Virus genome (UHGV): UHGV-0122054
Source of the DNA: a virus
Strand: one strand, 5' to 3'
DNA: 32,224 nt
Shown here: positions 3,997-16,224 of the stretch, in pieces
Layout of the letters: every line of letters begins with the position of its first letter
How positions within the stretch are numbered: the first letter of the stretch is position 1
Notes under the pieces: model-generated
Databases searched by the model: none
What the model was told of the DNA's origin: nothing
The model's input: only the letters and a program-made list of their open reading frames with translations
Made by a program: the position numbers and the translations under genes

Positions 3997-4008
3997 AAGA
4001 GGTGACTG

Positions 4009-4383
4009 ATGCTCATAGATTTGGTTTTACCTTACCCGCCGACGGTGAACACTTACTGGCGACGCCGTGGCAGCACATATTTTATCTCGGAGGAGGGAAA
4101 GCGTTATCGCCGGGCTGTGGCGCTTATTGTTCGCCAGCAGCGGCTGAAATTAAGCCTGTCCGGAAGGCTGGCGATAAAGGTGATTGCAGAGCCACCGGAT
4201 AAGCGTCGTCGCGACCTGGACAATATCCTGAAAGCACCGCTGGATGCGCTGACGCATGCGGGAGTGTTAATGGACGATGAGCAGTTTGATGAAATCAATA
4301 TCGTTCGTGGTCAGCCAGTATCTGGTGGACGTATGGGGGTGAAGATTTACCCCATAATGCATGAAGAGCAGGTCAAAAAATGA
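4009..4383 (+). CDS. rusA: Holliday junction resolvase RusA
   Basis: 124 aa; PYPPTVNTYWRRRG...RRRDLDN...DDEQ pattern matches RusA family; SD AAGAGG upstream. Confidence 0.85.
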   Translation: MLIDLVLPYPPTVNTYWRRRGSTYFISEEGKRYRRAVALIVRQQRLKLSLSGRLAIKVIAEPPDKRRRDLDNILKAPLDALTHAGVLMDDEQFDEINIVRGQPVSGGRMGVKIYPIMHEEQVKK

Positions 4384-5201
4384 AACTGGAAGATTTACCG
4401 AAATACTACTCCCCAAAATCCCCTGGCCTGACCGATGCATCGGCCTCAACGTCAAAAGATGCGCTGAGTATCACTGATGTGATGGCCGCGCAGGGCATGA
4501 CACAGAATCGGGCTGAGATGGGGTTTTCTGCGTTCCTGGGGAAAATGGGCATCAGTATGAATGACAGGGCGCGGGCAACAGAATTACTGGCAGATTATGC
4601 ACTCAGTCGGTGCGATCGTGTGGCGGCGTTGAGAAAACTTCCGGCAGAAATAAAACCGGTAGTGATGCGCATTATGGCTTCGTATGCGTTTGAAGATTAT
4701 GCCCGTAGCGCGGCGAGCAAAAAACAGTGCCCCTGCTGTCACGGAAAAAAATTTATTGAAAGCGAGGTTTTTACAAACAAGATCCAGTATCCGGATGGTA
4801 AGCCACCAGTGTGGGCAAAGTGCACAAAAGGCGTGTATCCGTCTTACTGGGAAGAATGGAAAAAAGTCAGGGAGGTGGTAAAAGTTGCCTGTCCGGAGTG
4901 TGGCGGAAAGGGTGAGGTTTCCACCGCCTGTAAGGATTGCCGTGGGCGTGGTGTCGCCATTCATCGTGAAGAGTCGGTAAAACGTGGTATGCCTGTTATC
5001 AGAGATTGCCAGCGTTGTGGTGGTCGTGGCTGTGAAAGGCTGCCATCAACGGAGGCATTTAATGCCATATGCAAAGTGACGAGTGCTATCACGCTTGATA
5101 CGTGGAAAAAATCAGTGAAACGCTTTTACGATACGTTGGTGGTTCGGTTTGACATTGAAGAGGCATGGGCGGAGCGGCAGTTAAAGAGGGTAACGCGATA
5201 G
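4380..5201 (+). CDS. Late-gene antitermination protein Q (QuuQ/Q82-like)
   Basis: N-terminal LPKYYSPKSP and CxxC...CxxC zinc cluster; ATGA overlap with rusA; immediately followed by a PR'-like promoter. Confidence 0.75.
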   Translation: MKLEDLPKYYSPKSPGLTDASASTSKDALSITDVMAAQGMTQNRAEMGFSAFLGKMGISMNDRARATELLADYALSRCDRVAALRKLPAEIKPVVMRIMASYAFEDYARSAASKKQCPCCHGKKFIESEVFTNKIQYPDGKPPVWAKCTKGVYPSYWEEWKKVREVVKVACPECGGKGEVSTACKDCRGRGVAIHREESVKRGMPVIRDCQRCGGRGCERLPSTEAFNAICKVTSAITLDTWKKSVKRFYDTLVVRFDIEEAWAERQLKRVTR

Positions 5202-5206
5202 TGTTG

Positions 5207-5250
5207 TTGATTTTTCCCGAATCTGTGGTAAATTTGCTCTAACGATGGGC
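5207..5250 (+). promoter_or_regulatory. PR'-like late promoter with qut/pause element
   Basis: -35 TTGATT (5207-5212), 16-nt spacer, -10 TAAATT (5229-5234), then ...CTCTAACGATGGG, very close to the lambda PR' initial transcribed region. Confidence 0.6.
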
Positions 5251-5283
5251 GTTTTATGCCTGACGTTAGAAGATTTTTTACAC

Positions 5284-5305
5284 CCCGCCGCCTGGCGGGT
5301 TTTTT
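5284..5305 (+). terminator. tR'-like intrinsic terminator
   Basis: CCCGCC-GCCT-GGCGGG hairpin followed by TTTTTT, about 50 nt downstream of the predicted start. Confidence 0.7.
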
Positions 5306-5427
5306 ATGACTGAAATCGCGTCAGTACAGTAAACGCGCTGGTGGCGGTGAATACCTGTCTTTCAGCTTGCTGGCTTTTTCGACAAGAGTTATTGGTGTGT
5401 CACGTTAACCGGAAAAGGGAAAAAGAC

Positions 5428-5625
5428 ATGCTAAAACAGCAGGATATGACAGAAACCGCCAGAGTGGTGTTTAATGAATTAAGCGTTACCGAACCGGCGA
5501 CAGTCGGGGAGATAGCGCAGAATACTTACCTTTCACGCGAACGCTGCCAGTTAATACTGACCCAGCTGGTTATGGCGGGTCTGGCAGACTATCAGTTCGG
5601 TTGTTACAGACGCCTTCCGCAGTGA
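5428..5625 (+). CDS. Small putative DNA-binding (winged-helix-like) protein (65 aa)
   Basis: Track ORF 5341..5625; preferred ATG 5428 after 'aaaggga'; stop lies inside a terminator hairpin. Confidence 0.4.
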   Translation: MLKQQDMTETARVVFNELSVTEPATVGEIAQNTYLSRERCQLILTQLVMAGLADYQFGCYRRLPQ

Positions 5626-5636
5626 AGGCTTTTTTA
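5612..5636 (+). terminator. Intrinsic terminator
   Basis: GCCTTC-CGCAGT-GAAGGC hairpin followed by TTTTTTATTT. Confidence 0.7.
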
Positions 5637-5775
5637 TTTGTGGTAAATGGGCGGCTGGTGGGTGTTAGGGGCACCCACCAGCCATCTGCTCATGCGTTGG
5701 GTTCACAAGCAAACCTCAGGCCCACTGCTTTGCGCAAAAGCAGAATGAGCCTATCAGAGACAGGCTTAATGATCC

Positions 5776-6825
5776 ATGCTTAATACTGTAAAAATATCCA
5801 GTTGTGAGTTAATCAACGCCGACTGCCTGGAATTTATCCGGTCGTTACCCGAAAATTCTGTTGACCTGATAGTCACGGACCCGCCGTACTTTAAAGTGAA
5901 GCCTGAGGGCTGGGATAACCAGTGGAAGGGCGACGATGATTACCTGAAGTGGCTGGACCAGTGTCTGGCGCAGTTCTGGCGGGTGCTGAAACCTGCCGGA
6001 AGTCTTTACCTGTTCTGTGGTCATCGCCTGGCATCTGATATCGAAATCATGATGCGTGAACGCTTCAGTGTGCTGAACCATATTATCTGGGCGAAGCCGT
6101 CCGGACGCTGGAACGGATGCAACAAGGAAAGCCTGCGGGCGTATTTCCCCGCCACAGAGCGCATTCTGTTCGCGGAACATTATCAGGGGCCGTATCGTCC
6201 GAAAGATGCCGGGTATGCGGCGAAGGGCAGTGCACTGAAACAGCATGTGATGGCCCCGCTGATTTCTTACTTTCGTGATGCGCGCGCGGCCCTGGGGATA
6301 ACGGCAAAACAGATTGCAGATGCCACAGGAAAGAAAAACATGGTGTCGCACTGGTTCAGTGCCAGTCAGTGGCAGCTACCGAACGAAAGCGATTATCTGA
6401 AATTACAGTCGCTGTTTGCCCGGGTGGCAGAAGAGAAACATCAGCGCGGTGAACTGGAAAAGCCCCACCACCAGCTGGTGGATACGTATACGTCACTGAA
6501 CCGGCAGTATGTGGAGCTGCAGAGTGAATATAAGCATCTGCGGCGGTATTTTGGTGTGACGGCGCAGGTGCCGTACACGGATGTGTGGACACATAAACCG
6601 GTGCAGTTCTATCCCGGGAAACATCCGTGCGAAAAACCGGCAGAAATGCTGCAGCAGATAATCAGCGCAAGCAGTCGTCCGGGTGACCTGGTTGCAGATT
6701 TTTTTATGGGCTCAGGTTCAACGGTAAAAGCGGCACTGGCGCTCGGGCGTCGTGCGATTGGCGTTGAACTGGAGACCGGACGTTTTGAGCAGACAGTCAG
6801 GGAAGTTCAGGATTTAATCGTTTGA
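5776..6825 (+). CDS. N6-adenine DNA methyltransferase (orphan)
   Basis: N-terminal ...DLIVTDPPY (DPPY motif) and FxGSGST AdoMet-binding motif near the C-terminus; no adjacent restriction gene. Confidence 0.85.
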   Translation: MLNTVKISSCELINADCLEFIRSLPENSVDLIVTDPPYFKVKPEGWDNQWKGDDDYLKWLDQCLAQFWRVLKPAGSLYLFCGHRLASDIEIMMRERFSVLNHIIWAKPSGRWNGCNKESLRAYFPATERILFAEHYQGPYRPKDAGYAAKGSALKQHVMAPLISYFRDARAALGITAKQIADATGKKNMVSHWFSASQWQLPNESDYLKLQSLFARVAEEKHQRGELEKPHHQLVDTYTSLNRQYVELQSEYKHLRRYFGVTAQVPYTDVWTHKPVQFYPGKHPCEKPAEMLQQIISASSRPGDLVADFFMGSGSTVKAALALGRRAIGVELETGRFEQTVREVQDLIV

Positions 6826-6874
6826 AACGGATGAGATTGCAGAATTAATTACGCACCATTATTATTCTGCTCCC

Positions 6875-6950
6875 GGCCCTTTAGCTCAGTGGTGAGAGCG
6901 AGCGACTCATAATCGCCAGGTCGCTGGTTCAAATCCAGCAAGGGCCACCA
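6875..6950 (+). tRNA. tRNA with CAU anticodon (Ile2/lysidine type; ileZ-like of Stx phages)
   Basis: 76 nt; acceptor GGCCCTT/AAGGGCC, D-arm GCTC..GAGC, anticodon loop CTCATAA, T-loop TTCAAAT, CCA end; close to E. coli ileX in my recollection. Confidence 0.85.
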
Positions 6951-6957
6951 TCACATA

Positions 6958-7034
6958 CCGCCATTAGCTCATCAGGAAAGAGCGCCAGCCTTCGAAGCTG
7001 GTTGCGCGGAGTTCGGGTCCCCGAAGGCGGTCCA
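6958..7034 (+). tRNA. tRNA-Arg-like (anticodon UCG), possibly imperfect
   Basis: 77 nt cloverleaf with perfect anticodon stem (CCAGC/GCTGG, loop CTTCGAA), but one mismatch in the acceptor stem (A.A) and one in the T-stem (A.C). Confidence 0.5.
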
Positions 7035-7047
7035 TTATCTGTATCCT

Positions 7048-7124
7048 GCGTTGTTAGCTCAGCCGGACAGAGCAATTGCCTTCTAAGCAATCGGTCACTG
7101 GTTCGAATCCAGTACAACGCGCCA
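7048..7124 (+). tRNA. tRNA-Arg (anticodon UCU; argO/argU-like)
   Basis: 77 nt; acceptor GCGTTGT/ACAACGC, anticodon loop CTTCTAA, T-arm ACTGG-TTCGAAT-CCAGT, CCA end. Confidence 0.85.
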
Positions 7125-7139
7125 CACTTATTTTCCCTG

Positions 7140-7163
7140 GCTCGCTTTTGCGGGCTTTTTTTT
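7140..7163 (+). terminator. Intrinsic terminator after the tRNA cluster
   Basis: GCUCGC-UUUU-GCGGGC hairpin (one G.U) followed by 8 T. Confidence 0.65.
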
Positions 7164-7169
7164 AAATGT

Positions 7170-7383
7170 CTCACAATTCAGGCGGTTGACTGTTGTCTGG
7201 TTTGCGGGGAGTTTGTTAAAAGAAACTGGCATGGTGAATCCCCCTGTGCGGAGGGGCAATCAGCGAGTAGGTATATGGGATAATCGCGGATTCAGGTGCT
7301 GGTACTGAATTCACCGGGAGGCACCCGGCACCATGCAATGGCACATAGCGCCACTCTCCAGCCCCTCTCCGGAGGGGCTTTTC
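7170..7383 (+). ncRNA. Candidate small-RNA module A (non-coding, ends in intrinsic terminator)
   Basis: No credible ORF; hairpin CCCCT-gtgcgg-AGGGG (7240-7256); conserved CACCGGGAGGCACCCGGCACCATG (7312-7335); terminator GCCCCTC-TCCG-GAGGGGC plus TTTT (7361-7383). Homologous to module B. Confidence 0.3.
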
Positions 7384-7573
7384 TGTGCCGGATACATCAC
7401 AGTTTCTGGAACCTTAGGTACTACAGTATCAGTCAGGGTGCTATATTTTCAGATGTGATGAAAGCCTGTCAGCAGGCAGGGCGTATCGGAAATGACCCAG
7501 TAGAGAAAACGTTGACTCAGATACCGGTGCTGAGTTACCGGGAAACCGGCATCACATGACCGCTATCCTTCCA

Positions 7574-7601
7574 GGCCCATCCGCTCCGGTGGGCCTTTTT
7601 A
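7574..7601 (+). terminator. Intrinsic terminator closing an intervening non-coding unit
   Basis: GGCCCA..TGGGCC stem with inner CCG/CGG pairs, followed by TTTTT. Confidence 0.5.
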
Positions 7602-7637
7602 CTGCAGAAAACAGGTTCCCCGTTAAATGCTATGTTG

Positions 7638-14566: not shown

Positions 14567-16224
14567 TACCTGTATGGAGCACAGCCTGCCCGGACTGGGC
14601 AGAGCGCCTGAAAAAGGGGCTGTCGATTATTCCGGATCCGATTTATCCGGACGAGGCCGCACATGCCCTGGCGATTTTTAAACAACTGCGGATTGTGGAT
14701 GCACCTGGTAGCCCGACGTTCGGGGAGTCCTGTGCACCGTGGGTGTTTGACCTGGTGGCGGCCCTGTTTGGCTCCTACGATGCGCAGACCGGTGTACGCC
14801 ATATCAAGGAAGTTTTTATCCTTATCCCCAAGAAAAACTCGAAGTCCACGCTGGCCGCGGGGATCATGATGACTGCACTGTTACTGAACTGGCGGCAGGC
14901 GGCGGGTTACACGATTCTGGCCCCGACTGTGGAGGTGGCGGCCAACGCCTTCAACCCTGCCCGGGATATGGTACGACGTGACGATGATCTGGATGACCTC
15001 TGCCAGGTACAGACCCATATCCGGACCATCACCCACAGGGTGACAGACACCACCCTGAAGGTGGTGGCTGCCGATCCGAATACGGTGTCCGGTATCAAGT
15101 CCGTGGGTACGCTGATTGATGAGTTGTGGCTGTTTGGCAAGCAGTGCAAGGCGGAGGACATGTTACGTGAAGCCATAGGCGGCCTTGCCTCCCGCCCGGA
15201 AGGGTTTGTGGTGTATACGACCACCCAGTCGAATGAACCGCCTGCCGGGGTGTTCAGACAGAAACTGCAGTACGCCCGGGATGTGCGCGACGGCAAAATT
15301 CATGATCCGCACTTTCTGCCGGTGATATTTGAACACCCTCCTGAAATGGTGGAAAGCGGGGCTCACCTGCTGATGGAAAACCTCGCCATGGTCAATCCGA
15401 ATCTCGGCTATTCAGTGGATGAGGCCTTTCTGTACCGGGAGTACCGTAAAGCCCGGGAAGCCGGTGAAGAGACATTCCGGGGGTTCATGTCAAAACACGC
15501 CAATGTGGAAATTGGTCTTGCCCTGCGCTCTGACCGCTGGGCGGGGGCTGATTTCTGGGAAGAGCAGGGCCGTTGTATCAGCCTGGACGATATCCTGCGT
15601 CGTGCTGATGTGGTGACGGTGGGGATTGACGGCGGAGGGCTGGATGATCTGCTGGGGATGTATGTGATTGGGCGTGACCGGGAGACCCGCGAATGGCTGG
15701 GCTGGGGCCATGCCTGGGCGCATGAAACCGCGGTGGTCCGACGGAAGAGCGAGGCGTCCCGGTTTCAGGATCTTGTTGCCTGTGGAGATATGACCATTGT
15801 CCGGCGTGTCGGGGATGACACGGCGGAAGTGGCGGAATATGTGCGTCGCATTCATGAGGCTGAGTTACTGGACCATATCGGTATTGACCCGTCAGGGGTG
15901 GGGCAGATTCTGGATTCACTGGCGGAAGCCGGGATCCCCGACGGAATTGTGGTGGGGATAAGCCAGGGCTGGAAGCTGGGCGGGGCCATCAAAACCACCG
16001 AGCGCAAACTGGCTGAAGGGGTACTGGTGCATGGTGGCCAGCCCCTGATGGCCTGGTGTGTCGGCAATGCCCGGGTGGAGCCTAAAGGTAACGCCATCCT
16101 TATTACCAAACAGGCCAGCGGACGGGGAAAAATTGACCCGCTGATGGCGCTCTTCAATGCGGTGTCCCTGATGTCCCTGAATCCGGAACCGAAAAAGAAA
16201 GCGTATGAGGTTTTTTTCATATAA
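14563..16224 (+). CDS. Terminase large subunit
   Basis: 553 aa; P-loop ILIPKKNSKST and C-terminal nuclease-type VGIDGGGLDD motif. Confidence 0.9.
   Translation: MIPVWSTACPDWAERLKKGLSIIPDPIYPDEAAHALAIFKQLRIVDAPGSPTFGESCAPWVFDLVAALFGSYDAQTGVRHIKEVFILIPKKNSKSTLAAGIMMTALLLNWRQAAGYTILAPTVEVAANAFNPARDMVRRDDDLDDLCQVQTHIRTITHRVTDTTLKVVAADPNTVSGIKSVGTLIDELWLFGKQCKAEDMLREAIGGLASRPEGFVVYTTTQSNEPPAGVFRQKLQYARDVRDGKIHDPHFLPVIFEHPPEMVESGAHLLMENLAMVNPNLGYSVDEAFLYREYRKAREAGEETFRGFMSKHANVEIGLALRSDRWAGADFWEEQGRCISLDDILRRADVVTVGIDGGGLDDLLGMYVIGRDRETREWLGWGHAWAHETAVVRRKSEASRFQDLVACGDMTIVRRVGDDTAEVAEYVRRIHEAELLDHIGIDPSGVGQILDSLAEAGIPDGIVVGISQGWKLGGAIKTTERKLAEGVLVHGGQPLMAWCVGNARVEPKGNAILITKQASGRGKIDPLMALFNAVSLMSLNPEPKKKAYEVFFI

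Follow-up and report, generated by a model that had tools for sequence, protein, structure and literature searches.

What controls the late genes of the virus genome UHGV-0122054, and what lies in the short gap that follows its antiterminator gene? We analyzed a stretch of 32,224 nt of this genome (the window; positions are counted from its first nucleotide), in which the antiterminator gene Q is followed by lysis and morphogenesis genes. A Q-dependent cassette comprises a Q gene, a late promoter PR' with an embedded Q-binding element (QBE), a sigma-dependent pause element, and a terminator (PMC9388147). The segment 5207-5305 is very probably a cassette of this kind, by which a lambdoid prophage controls its late genes; it is laid out like PR'-qut-tR' of phage lambda and would be served by an antiterminator of the Q-lambda family. 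The order and spacing of its elements match those described for these cassettes (PMC9388147), as do the family of Q, the pause element, and the terminator. What we observed directly are the sequence elements with their spacing and conservation, and the fact that they are linked to one subfamily of Q.

The Q gene

The gene upstream of the segment (4380-5201, + strand, 273 amino acids), which a preliminary description of the window had taken to be Q, is a member of the Q-lambda family. It matches PF03589 (E = 2e-49), aligns with lambda Q from end to end except for one insertion (BLASTP: 31% identity, E = 1e-37), and has its top solved-structure matches in the Q-lambda chains 7UBM and 7UBN (E = 2e-38), in two stretches covering residues 1-113 and 182-273. 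PHROG 127/25523, "anti-termination protein Q-like", also matches. PF03589 has been named as the Q-lambda family, distinct from Q21 (PF06530) and Q82 (PF06323) (PMC9388147); neither of the latter two matched, the Pfam search of the open reading frame (ORF) returning PF03589 and a sub-threshold DnaJ zinc finger (DnaJ_CXXCXGXG) only.

The insertion relative to lambda Q spans 68 residues (residues 114-181, window 4719-4922) and adds two CxxC pairs, giving a total of four, which explains the weak DnaJ match. Judged from the alignment, the region is a DnaJ-like four-CxxC module where lambda has a single zinc-ribbon arm. The lambda arm touches QBE positions 11-13 (PMC9388147). The insertion is present in most of the family members that we examined, lambda and P22 being short forms.

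The predicted late promoter and the pause element

Q ends with the stop codon TAG at 5199-5201, and six bases past it begins a predicted promoter on the same strand, TTGATT-16 nt-TGgTAAATT. The preliminary description had placed a -35 TTGATT and a -10 TAAATT directly past Q, and both are found there: the -35 hexamer at 5207-5212 and, after a 16-nt spacer (TTTCCCGAATCTGTGG, 5213-5228), the -10 hexamer at 5229-5234, identical to that of lambda PR'. TG at 5226-5227 makes this an extended -10 element (5226-5234), and TGCTCT (5235-5240) separates it from AACGATGGG at 5241-5249, which is identical to lambda PR' from +1 to +9 and lies at the same 6-nt distance from the -10 (CTCTAACGATGGG = 5237-5249). 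A single copy of the lambda motif TAAATT-N6-AACGATGGG is present in the window, at 5229-5249, without mismatch over its 15 specified bases; shuffled sequence gives 0.05 matches even when two mismatches are allowed. BLASTN to lambda aligned GGTAAATTTG-CTC-AACGATGGG at 22 of 24 positions, so that the mirroring of the lambda PR' initial transcribed sequence, asserted in the preliminary description, is borne out.

A generic promoter scan, with a threshold of 9/12 over the two hexamers, listed nothing at 5207-5234 and no other + strand candidate in 4000-8200. The site was missed because its hexamers score 8/12, which is a threshold effect and no proof of absence; the -10 is that of lambda, and both hexamers are conserved in relatives. 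Among 28 unique relatives whose Q is at least 90% identical, the -35 hexamer is invariant and positions -34 to -7 are almost so, the variation being concentrated in the five bases between the stop codon and the -35, in positions -6 to -1, in the linker from +28 to +43, and in the terminator loop. On this pattern the promoter is under purifying selection, its core being far more conserved than its flanks.

In lambda, AACGAT (+1 to +6) resembles a -10 hexamer, and there sigma70 brings about the pause at +16 that Q requires; the GGG that follows is discriminator-like (PMC4005639). The window has both, AACGAT at +1 to +6 and GGG at +7 to +9 (5241-5249, + strand). By its identity to lambda, the transcription start would be A5241 and the pause would fall near +16/+17 (5256-5257). 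Related prophages carry AATGAT, AACAAT, AACTAT, and AATAAT at this place, always with A2 and T6, the key -10 positions, retained (the variant loci are L053, L057, L058, L060, and L065 of our IMG/VR set, at about position 1662). Some of these changes shift the hexamer toward TATAAT, and none is compensated by the RNA partner strand; the pause element thus appears to behave as a DNA element. More distant family members have AACACT, AACAGT, AACGCT, and AAGGAT besides AACGAT. A terminator scan also reported a weak hairpin-plus-T site at 5235-5251 (five pairs) that overlaps the start and the pause element, and we treated it as chance.

The promoter spacer as a candidate Q-binding element

The lambda QBE lies between the -35 and the -10 (PMC4914094). 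The same interval in the window, TTTTCCCGAATCTGTGG (5212-5228, + strand), is retained as TTTTCC[CG]GAA[TA][CT][TC]G[TC]G in HK225, mEp237, phiEt88, and IMG/VR loci, at Q identities of only 52-68%. We searched for the 20-mer TTTTCCSGAATCTGTGKTAA in one genome per species and obtained 21 matches, 17 of which directly follow a homologue of Q (54-100% identity) and precede AACGATGGG and a terminator. These 17 species representatives belong to Kluyvera, Silvania, Yokenella, Leclercia, Enterobacter, Pseudescherichia, and Escherichia (seven genera). The remaining four, in metagenome-assembled genomes of Spirochaetaceae, Prevotellaceae, and Flavobacteriales, have neither Q nor AACGAT nearby and were rejected as chance matches; by our own calculation about four matches are expected by chance in the 596 Gb searched.

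Other Q subfamilies have different spacers: TATTGAATAAAATTGGG in lambda and P22, TTTTTCAAAAAATATGGA in SfV and Qin, and AAAATTAACGGAAAATGGC in SP-016. Since the spacer is conserved with the Q subfamily, differs between subfamilies, and occupies the interval of the lambda QBE, TTTTCCSGAATCTGTG is likely to be the QBE of this subfamily, tracking it across genera of enterobacteria to Q identities as low as about 54%. The spacer supplies a defined site that Q proteins of the long-arm, four-CxxC branch may bind, and it could be used to probe how a larger zinc arm reads DNA in comparison with the solved lambda complex.

A possible second QBE/-10 at 5636-5648, a 12/13 copy of the 13-mer ATCTGTGGTAAAT (5221-5233, from the 3' end of the spacer and the -10), was rejected as probably coincidental. 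The copy is also present in Stx2_14040 despite the Q21-family Q of that phage, and it therefore belongs to the downstream module. A search of the whole window for a CII-activated antisense promoter resembling lambda paQ (TTGC-N6-TTGC) gave no match.

The terminator and the mosaic joint

The third element is an intrinsic terminator, equivalent to tR', at 5284-5305 (+ strand), found by both the terminator scan and folding. Its hairpin, CCCGCC-GCCT-GGCGGG (5284-5299), has a six-pair, all-G:C stem and a 4-nt loop, and is followed by TTTTTT (5300-5305). It begins 34 nt after AACGATGGG and 50 nt past the -10 hexamer, in agreement with the GC hairpin and T6 that had been noted about 50 nt downstream. 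Relatives have a terminator at the equivalent place, its sequence being either the same or unrelated.

A megablast comparison of 5100-5450 against phage records breaks exactly at this terminator. With phage Evi (97% identity in Q), the match covers the promoter and leader and extends to 5305; with 21 Stx2 and other phages, it does not begin until 5284-5285. One of them, Stx2_14040, encodes a 126-aa Q of the Q21 family (PF06530, E = 6e-53), followed by an unrelated leader, the same hairpin as in the window (CCCGCCGC..GCGGG-T7), and the common downstream DNA. In phiP27 the leader, terminator hairpin, and downstream DNA are as in Stx2_14040, and the ORF that precedes them is a GIY-YIG/T5orf172 nuclease, not a Q protein. 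The first PR'-proximal terminator of 933W also resembles 5284-5305 (18/22). These comparisons suggest that unrelated Q modules have been exchanged upstream of a common terminator and late region, with the terminator as the recombination joint. A terminator shared under different Qs fits a tR' whose function is to be overridden by Q. Such a joint bears on the swapping of Q alleles, and hence on the level of late-gene or toxin expression, among Stx and non-Stx prophages.

Cassettes of the Q-lambda family

We collected homologues of Q by tblastn (249 phage records) and compared cassettes from 15 phages (32-60% Q identity), 80 IMG/VR loci, K-12 Qin, and 21 species-representative genome loci. When they are anchored at the pause element, nearly all Q homologues show a -35, a -10, a -10-like hexamer at +1 to +6, and an intrinsic terminator. 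No PR'-like cassette was identified downstream of the Q of PSTCR3, and none was recognizable in mEp044, in which a plus-strand ORF abuts the Q stop codon. In 11 homologues a simple finder put the terminated leader at 58-71 nt, with the 194 nt of lambda as an outlier; leaders of about 60-70 nt, and not the lambda length, are the norm in the family. The records of HK225 and SfV have annotated terminators at the equivalent place.

The closest functional model remains lambda PR'-qut-tR'. The window shares with it a PF03589 Q, TAAATT, the 6-nt gap, AACGATGGG, a conserved spacer between -35 and -10, a terminator followed by late genes, and a 5' hairpin in the predicted transcript. The lambda late promoter, TTGACT-17 nt-TAAATT-TGACTC-AACGATGGG (locus L001), differs in having a spacer of 17 nt, as opposed to 16 nt with an extended -10 TG in the window, and the two spacers are unrelated in sequence. 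The TTGACT just 5' of +1 in lambda is not kept, the window having TTGCTC, which is variable in relatives. The leader is 194 nt in lambda and about 65 nt here, and the window Q has the 68-residue insertion and a four-CxxC module instead of a single zinc-ribbon arm.

P22 has a Q-lambda-family gene 23, and its record BK000583 marks, in the order seen here, P late, a site resembling qut, the 5' nucleotide of the RNA, and t late, which gives an RNA of about 59 nt. It differs from the window in that gene 23 is nearly identical to lambda Q, the spacer is of the lambda type, and the terminator sequence is unrelated. HK225, mEp237, phiEt88, and prophages of Kluyvera, Enterobacter, Silvania, Leclercia, and others share the long-arm Q (52-60%), the spacer TTTTCCCGAATCTGTG, AACGATGGG, and a terminator at about +27 to +55, but have TTTACT as -35 and TAATTT as -10, and differ in leader and terminator sequences. 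The insertion-bearing Q of K-12 Qin (ydfT, also quuQ) and SfV (about 38-42% identity for SfV) likewise goes with AACGATGGG, a related leader (GGGCUUUGUAU..CGUU), and a terminated length of 63-65 nt; their spacer, TTTTTCAAAAAATATGGA, is different and implies a different QBE specificity. A literature search on quuQ returned nothing relevant.

The predicted short RNA and its 5' hairpin

Transcription from A5241 to the terminator would yield, without Q, an RNA of about 65 nt (5241-5305, + strand), close to the roughly 60 nt of the preliminary description, whose lambda-like PR'/qut/early-terminator reading is further supported by the same layout among Q homologues and in the P22 annotation. The predicted RNA consists of a 5' hairpin, the A/U-rich linker AGAAGAUUUUUUACAC, and the terminator hairpin with its U tail. 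It folds at -21.9 kcal/mol (z = -2.48), with 16 nt of linker single-stranded. Rfam 15 gave no family at the gathering threshold for 5200-5320, and at E up to 10 only noise (RF_site2, E = 0.63; anti-hemB, E = 6).

In the 5'-terminal hairpin (5241-5267, + strand), +1 to +4 pair with +24 to +27 and +7 to +12 with +16 to +21, on which the minimum-free-energy and centroid structures agree. For ten diverse leaders, among them those of lambda, P22, HK225, SfV, K-12 Qin, and SP-016, folding predicts a hairpin whose first paired base is +1 or +2 and whose last is at +23 to +28 (for example L001 788-812 for lambda and L014 1402-1424 for P22; also L003, L008, and L097); in an eleventh leader, L096, only two of the first four nucleotides are paired. 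The 3' arm (..CGUU) lies at a different distance in each lineage, which argues against a DNA contact at a fixed position.

MAFFT aligned 20 leaders without gaps and misaligned hairpins of unequal length, and pair counting was therefore limited to 14 leaders of equal length. In these, 92.9% of cells are paired, vs. 30-41% when the partner is slid, with the caveat that the structure was derived from the same sequences in which pairs were counted. Six of the ten pairs vary, each on one side only (G:C/G:U or U:G/U:A), and no two-sided compensatory change was seen among the 14 leaders because the pause element freezes the 5' arm. Pause-element variants that break the outer stem are uncompensated. 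A column-shuffle control was uninformative (316/500), and when the 3' part alone was shuffled an equally good 5' hairpin arose in 1-12% of trials per sequence. In lambda, Q still engages after +17 to +36 have been replaced (PMC4005639). The 5' hairpin is, as far as folding can tell, a real but modest regularity, for which a role in RNA stability is likelier than one in loading Q.

How the cassette would work

By analogy with lambda and P22, from which we take the start site, the pause, the contact of Q with the spacer, and the production of the short RNA, host sigma70 RNA polymerase would start at about A5241 from TTGATT-16 nt-TGgTAAATT. Region 2 of sigma70 would then re-bind the -10-like AACGAT at +1 to +6, reinforced by GGG, and keep the polymerase paused and scrunched near +16/+17. 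In the absence of Q it would escape slowly, terminate at the hairpin and T6 of 5284-5305, and release the RNA of about 65 nt. With Q present, Q would bind the spacer TTTTCCCGAATCTGTG (5212-5227), dock on the paused complex, and travel with the polymerase, which would then ignore 5284-5305 and the series of terminators downstream, so that the methylase, tRNA, lysis, and morphogenesis genes are expressed. The textbook mechanism is unchanged by our findings; the four-CxxC long-arm Q subfamily and its spacer motif appear uncharacterized.

Several observations weigh against this assignment. The two hexamers match at only 4/6 and 4/6 positions, the spacer is 16 nt, and the generic scan missed the site; the TGn of the extended -10 may offset the weak hexamers. 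Positions -6 to -1 are the most variable part of the promoter in the 28 relatives, and in lambda it is on the segment directly 5' of the pause element that sigma region 4 is repositioned (PMC9388147). The spacer is unlike the lambda QBE, and in place of the arm that reads the QBE in lambda, Q has a four-CxxC module of much greater size; Q and DNA may thus meet in a geometry different from that in lambda. Some copies of the cassette lie in visibly decayed prophages, such as that of ATCC 11775 with its frameshifted rrrQ. A literature search with sequence strings gave no paper that prints the cassette sequence.

Alternative explanations

The reading that survives best beside the late-gene switch adds to it and does not exclude it: the RNA of about 65 nt may also be a trans-acting, Hfq-dependent small RNA (sRNA), made constitutively in lysogens like StxS. 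We regard this as unlikely, though it is the most plausible of the alternatives. The fold has an architecture of the Hfq type, with the 5' hairpin, a single-stranded A/U-rich linker in which AGAAGA and U6 occur, and a terminator hairpin of G:C pairs with a U6 tail; 1723 of the 5426 complete E. coli genomes carry the element. There is also precedent: StxS derives from a PR' transcript that ends at tR', and it is bound by Hfq (PMC7547250); according to a preprint, lysogens contain lambda 6S RNA, which also turns up in Hfq RIL-seq chimeras (bioRxiv 10.1101/2024.10.31.621285). On the other side, close relatives differ most in the single-stranded linker, the sole part of the RNA that could plausibly act as a seed; the RNA shows no similarity to StxS and no Rfam match; no target or Hfq data were found; and of the short PR' RNAs known for lambda, 21, phi80, 82, and P22, lambda 6S RNA is without an assigned function (PMC7547250).

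The comparison with StxS, which the preliminary description had drawn, holds for the way in which the RNA would arise and fails for its sequence. In principle the origin is the same, a constitutive PR' transcript ended at tR' in the lysogen, and a tRNA trio and an esterase gene lie downstream as in Stx phages. StxS, however, has 74 nt and is cut by RNase E from a PR' transcript of 258 nt (PMC7547250), and the window has no stx genes. BLASTN of 5195-5320 against the PR'-tR' region of 933W returned only the 22-nt hairpin of the first terminator (18/22, E = 0.011) and short chance words. The Q record of 933W carries the note "similar to Q protein of bacteriophage H19B and DLP12", and the PF06530 Q of the Stx2a phage Stx2_14040, whose leader is near-identical to that of 933W, points to a different family for the 933W-type Q.

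A more elaborate version of this idea seems to us somewhat less probable still. It holds that the leader is a stable constitutive prophage RNA, protected by its 5' hairpin across the Q-lambda family and acting in trans via Hfq on host or phage mRNAs in the manner of StxS, or, as a related option, that the hairpin aids Q-modified elongation. In the latter case the 5' hairpin may fold outside the Q nozzle once the RNA has been threaded through it.

That the cassette is an inert relic, with a defective prophage and a Q and promoter no longer active, is improbable. Many E. coli copies do lie in degraded prophages, among them that of ATCC 11775 (truncated esterase, frameshifted lysozyme) and K-12 Qin; relatives exist with the pause changes AATAAT and AACTAT; and Q is frameshifted or truncated in the IMG/VR loci L034, L058, and L075, that is, some copies are decaying. 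The Q of the window is nevertheless full length and 100% identical to many other copies, the holin, endolysin, terminase, and esterase ORFs are intact, and conservation is far higher in the promoter core than on either side of it. Moreover, the cultured phages Evi and vB_EcoS-640R1 carry Q at 93-97% identity (97% in Evi), and the DNA match to Evi spans the promoter and the leader up to the terminator.

We give very little credence to the view that the hairpin and T6 merely end an early, Q-containing operon while the promoter- and pause-like strings are coincidental. Terminators right after genes are common, and the generic scan called no promoter here, but the exact lambda motif of 15 specified bases is expected only 0.05 times even at two mismatches, the three-part layout follows homologous Q genes in many genera, and the observed pause variants preserve the likeness to a -10. 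It is just as improbable that the leader encodes a small peptide, as the open frame visible from ATG 5245 (22 codons, TGA at 5311-5313) might suggest: the ATG lies inside AACGAT-GGG, 4 nt from the predicted 5' end and without a ribosome-binding site, and the frame is not conserved, since lambda, HK225, and mEp237 have GGT TAA directly after this ATG, so that the frame stops after two codons.

Distribution and annotation

Among the 1723 complete E. coli genomes with the 171-bp core (5150-5320), 801 have it at 99% identity or more. Only "antitermination protein" is annotated over this stretch in ATCC 11775. The promoter, pause site, terminator, and predicted short RNA go unannotated in records such as this one despite their frequency, and the coordinates given here would allow them to be added.

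The late operon and neighboring features

Downstream of the terminator, the gene content is that of a late operon (5306-16224, + strand), which would depend on Q. Its first gene is a 65-aa ORF (5428-5625, + strand) of PHROG 331, of unknown function, which is labeled a TrmB-family regulator in phiP27; a second terminator (5612-5635) lies at its end. There follow a DNA methylase (5776-6825), three tRNAs (6875-7124), a 618-aa protein with DUF1737, SASA sialate O-acetylesterase, and DUF6645 regions (8100-9956), of the kind found 3' of stx in Stx phages, a holin (10029-10322), an endolysin (11015-11548), and the large terminase (14563-16224). Between 4000 and 8200 we found 16 terminator-like sites, vs. 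4.6 expected, mostly on the + strand and between PR' and the lysis genes; this excess fits an operon that needs Q-modified polymerase.

The first tRNA of the trio is Met (CAT) according to ARAGORN and tRNA-Ile (ileZ-like) in the RefSeq record of ATCC 11775; Arg(TCG) and Arg(TCT) follow, as in 933W. The Rfam sRNA family STnc100 is represented by two copies (7200-7390 and 7668-7877; 165 and 136 bits), each ending in a terminator-like hairpin; both lie after the trio and before the esterase gene, the place of stxAB in Stx phages. Upstream of Q, a toxin-antitoxin locus of the hok/sok type lies at 2551-2726 (Rfam sok, 120 bits), and hokD is annotated in the matching region of ATCC 11775. Just past the second terminator is a perfect 12-bp palindrome without a T tail (5653-5664 / 5672-5683), which is also present in Stx2_14040 and gives a sub-threshold match to Rfam P26 (24 bits, E = 0.0097).

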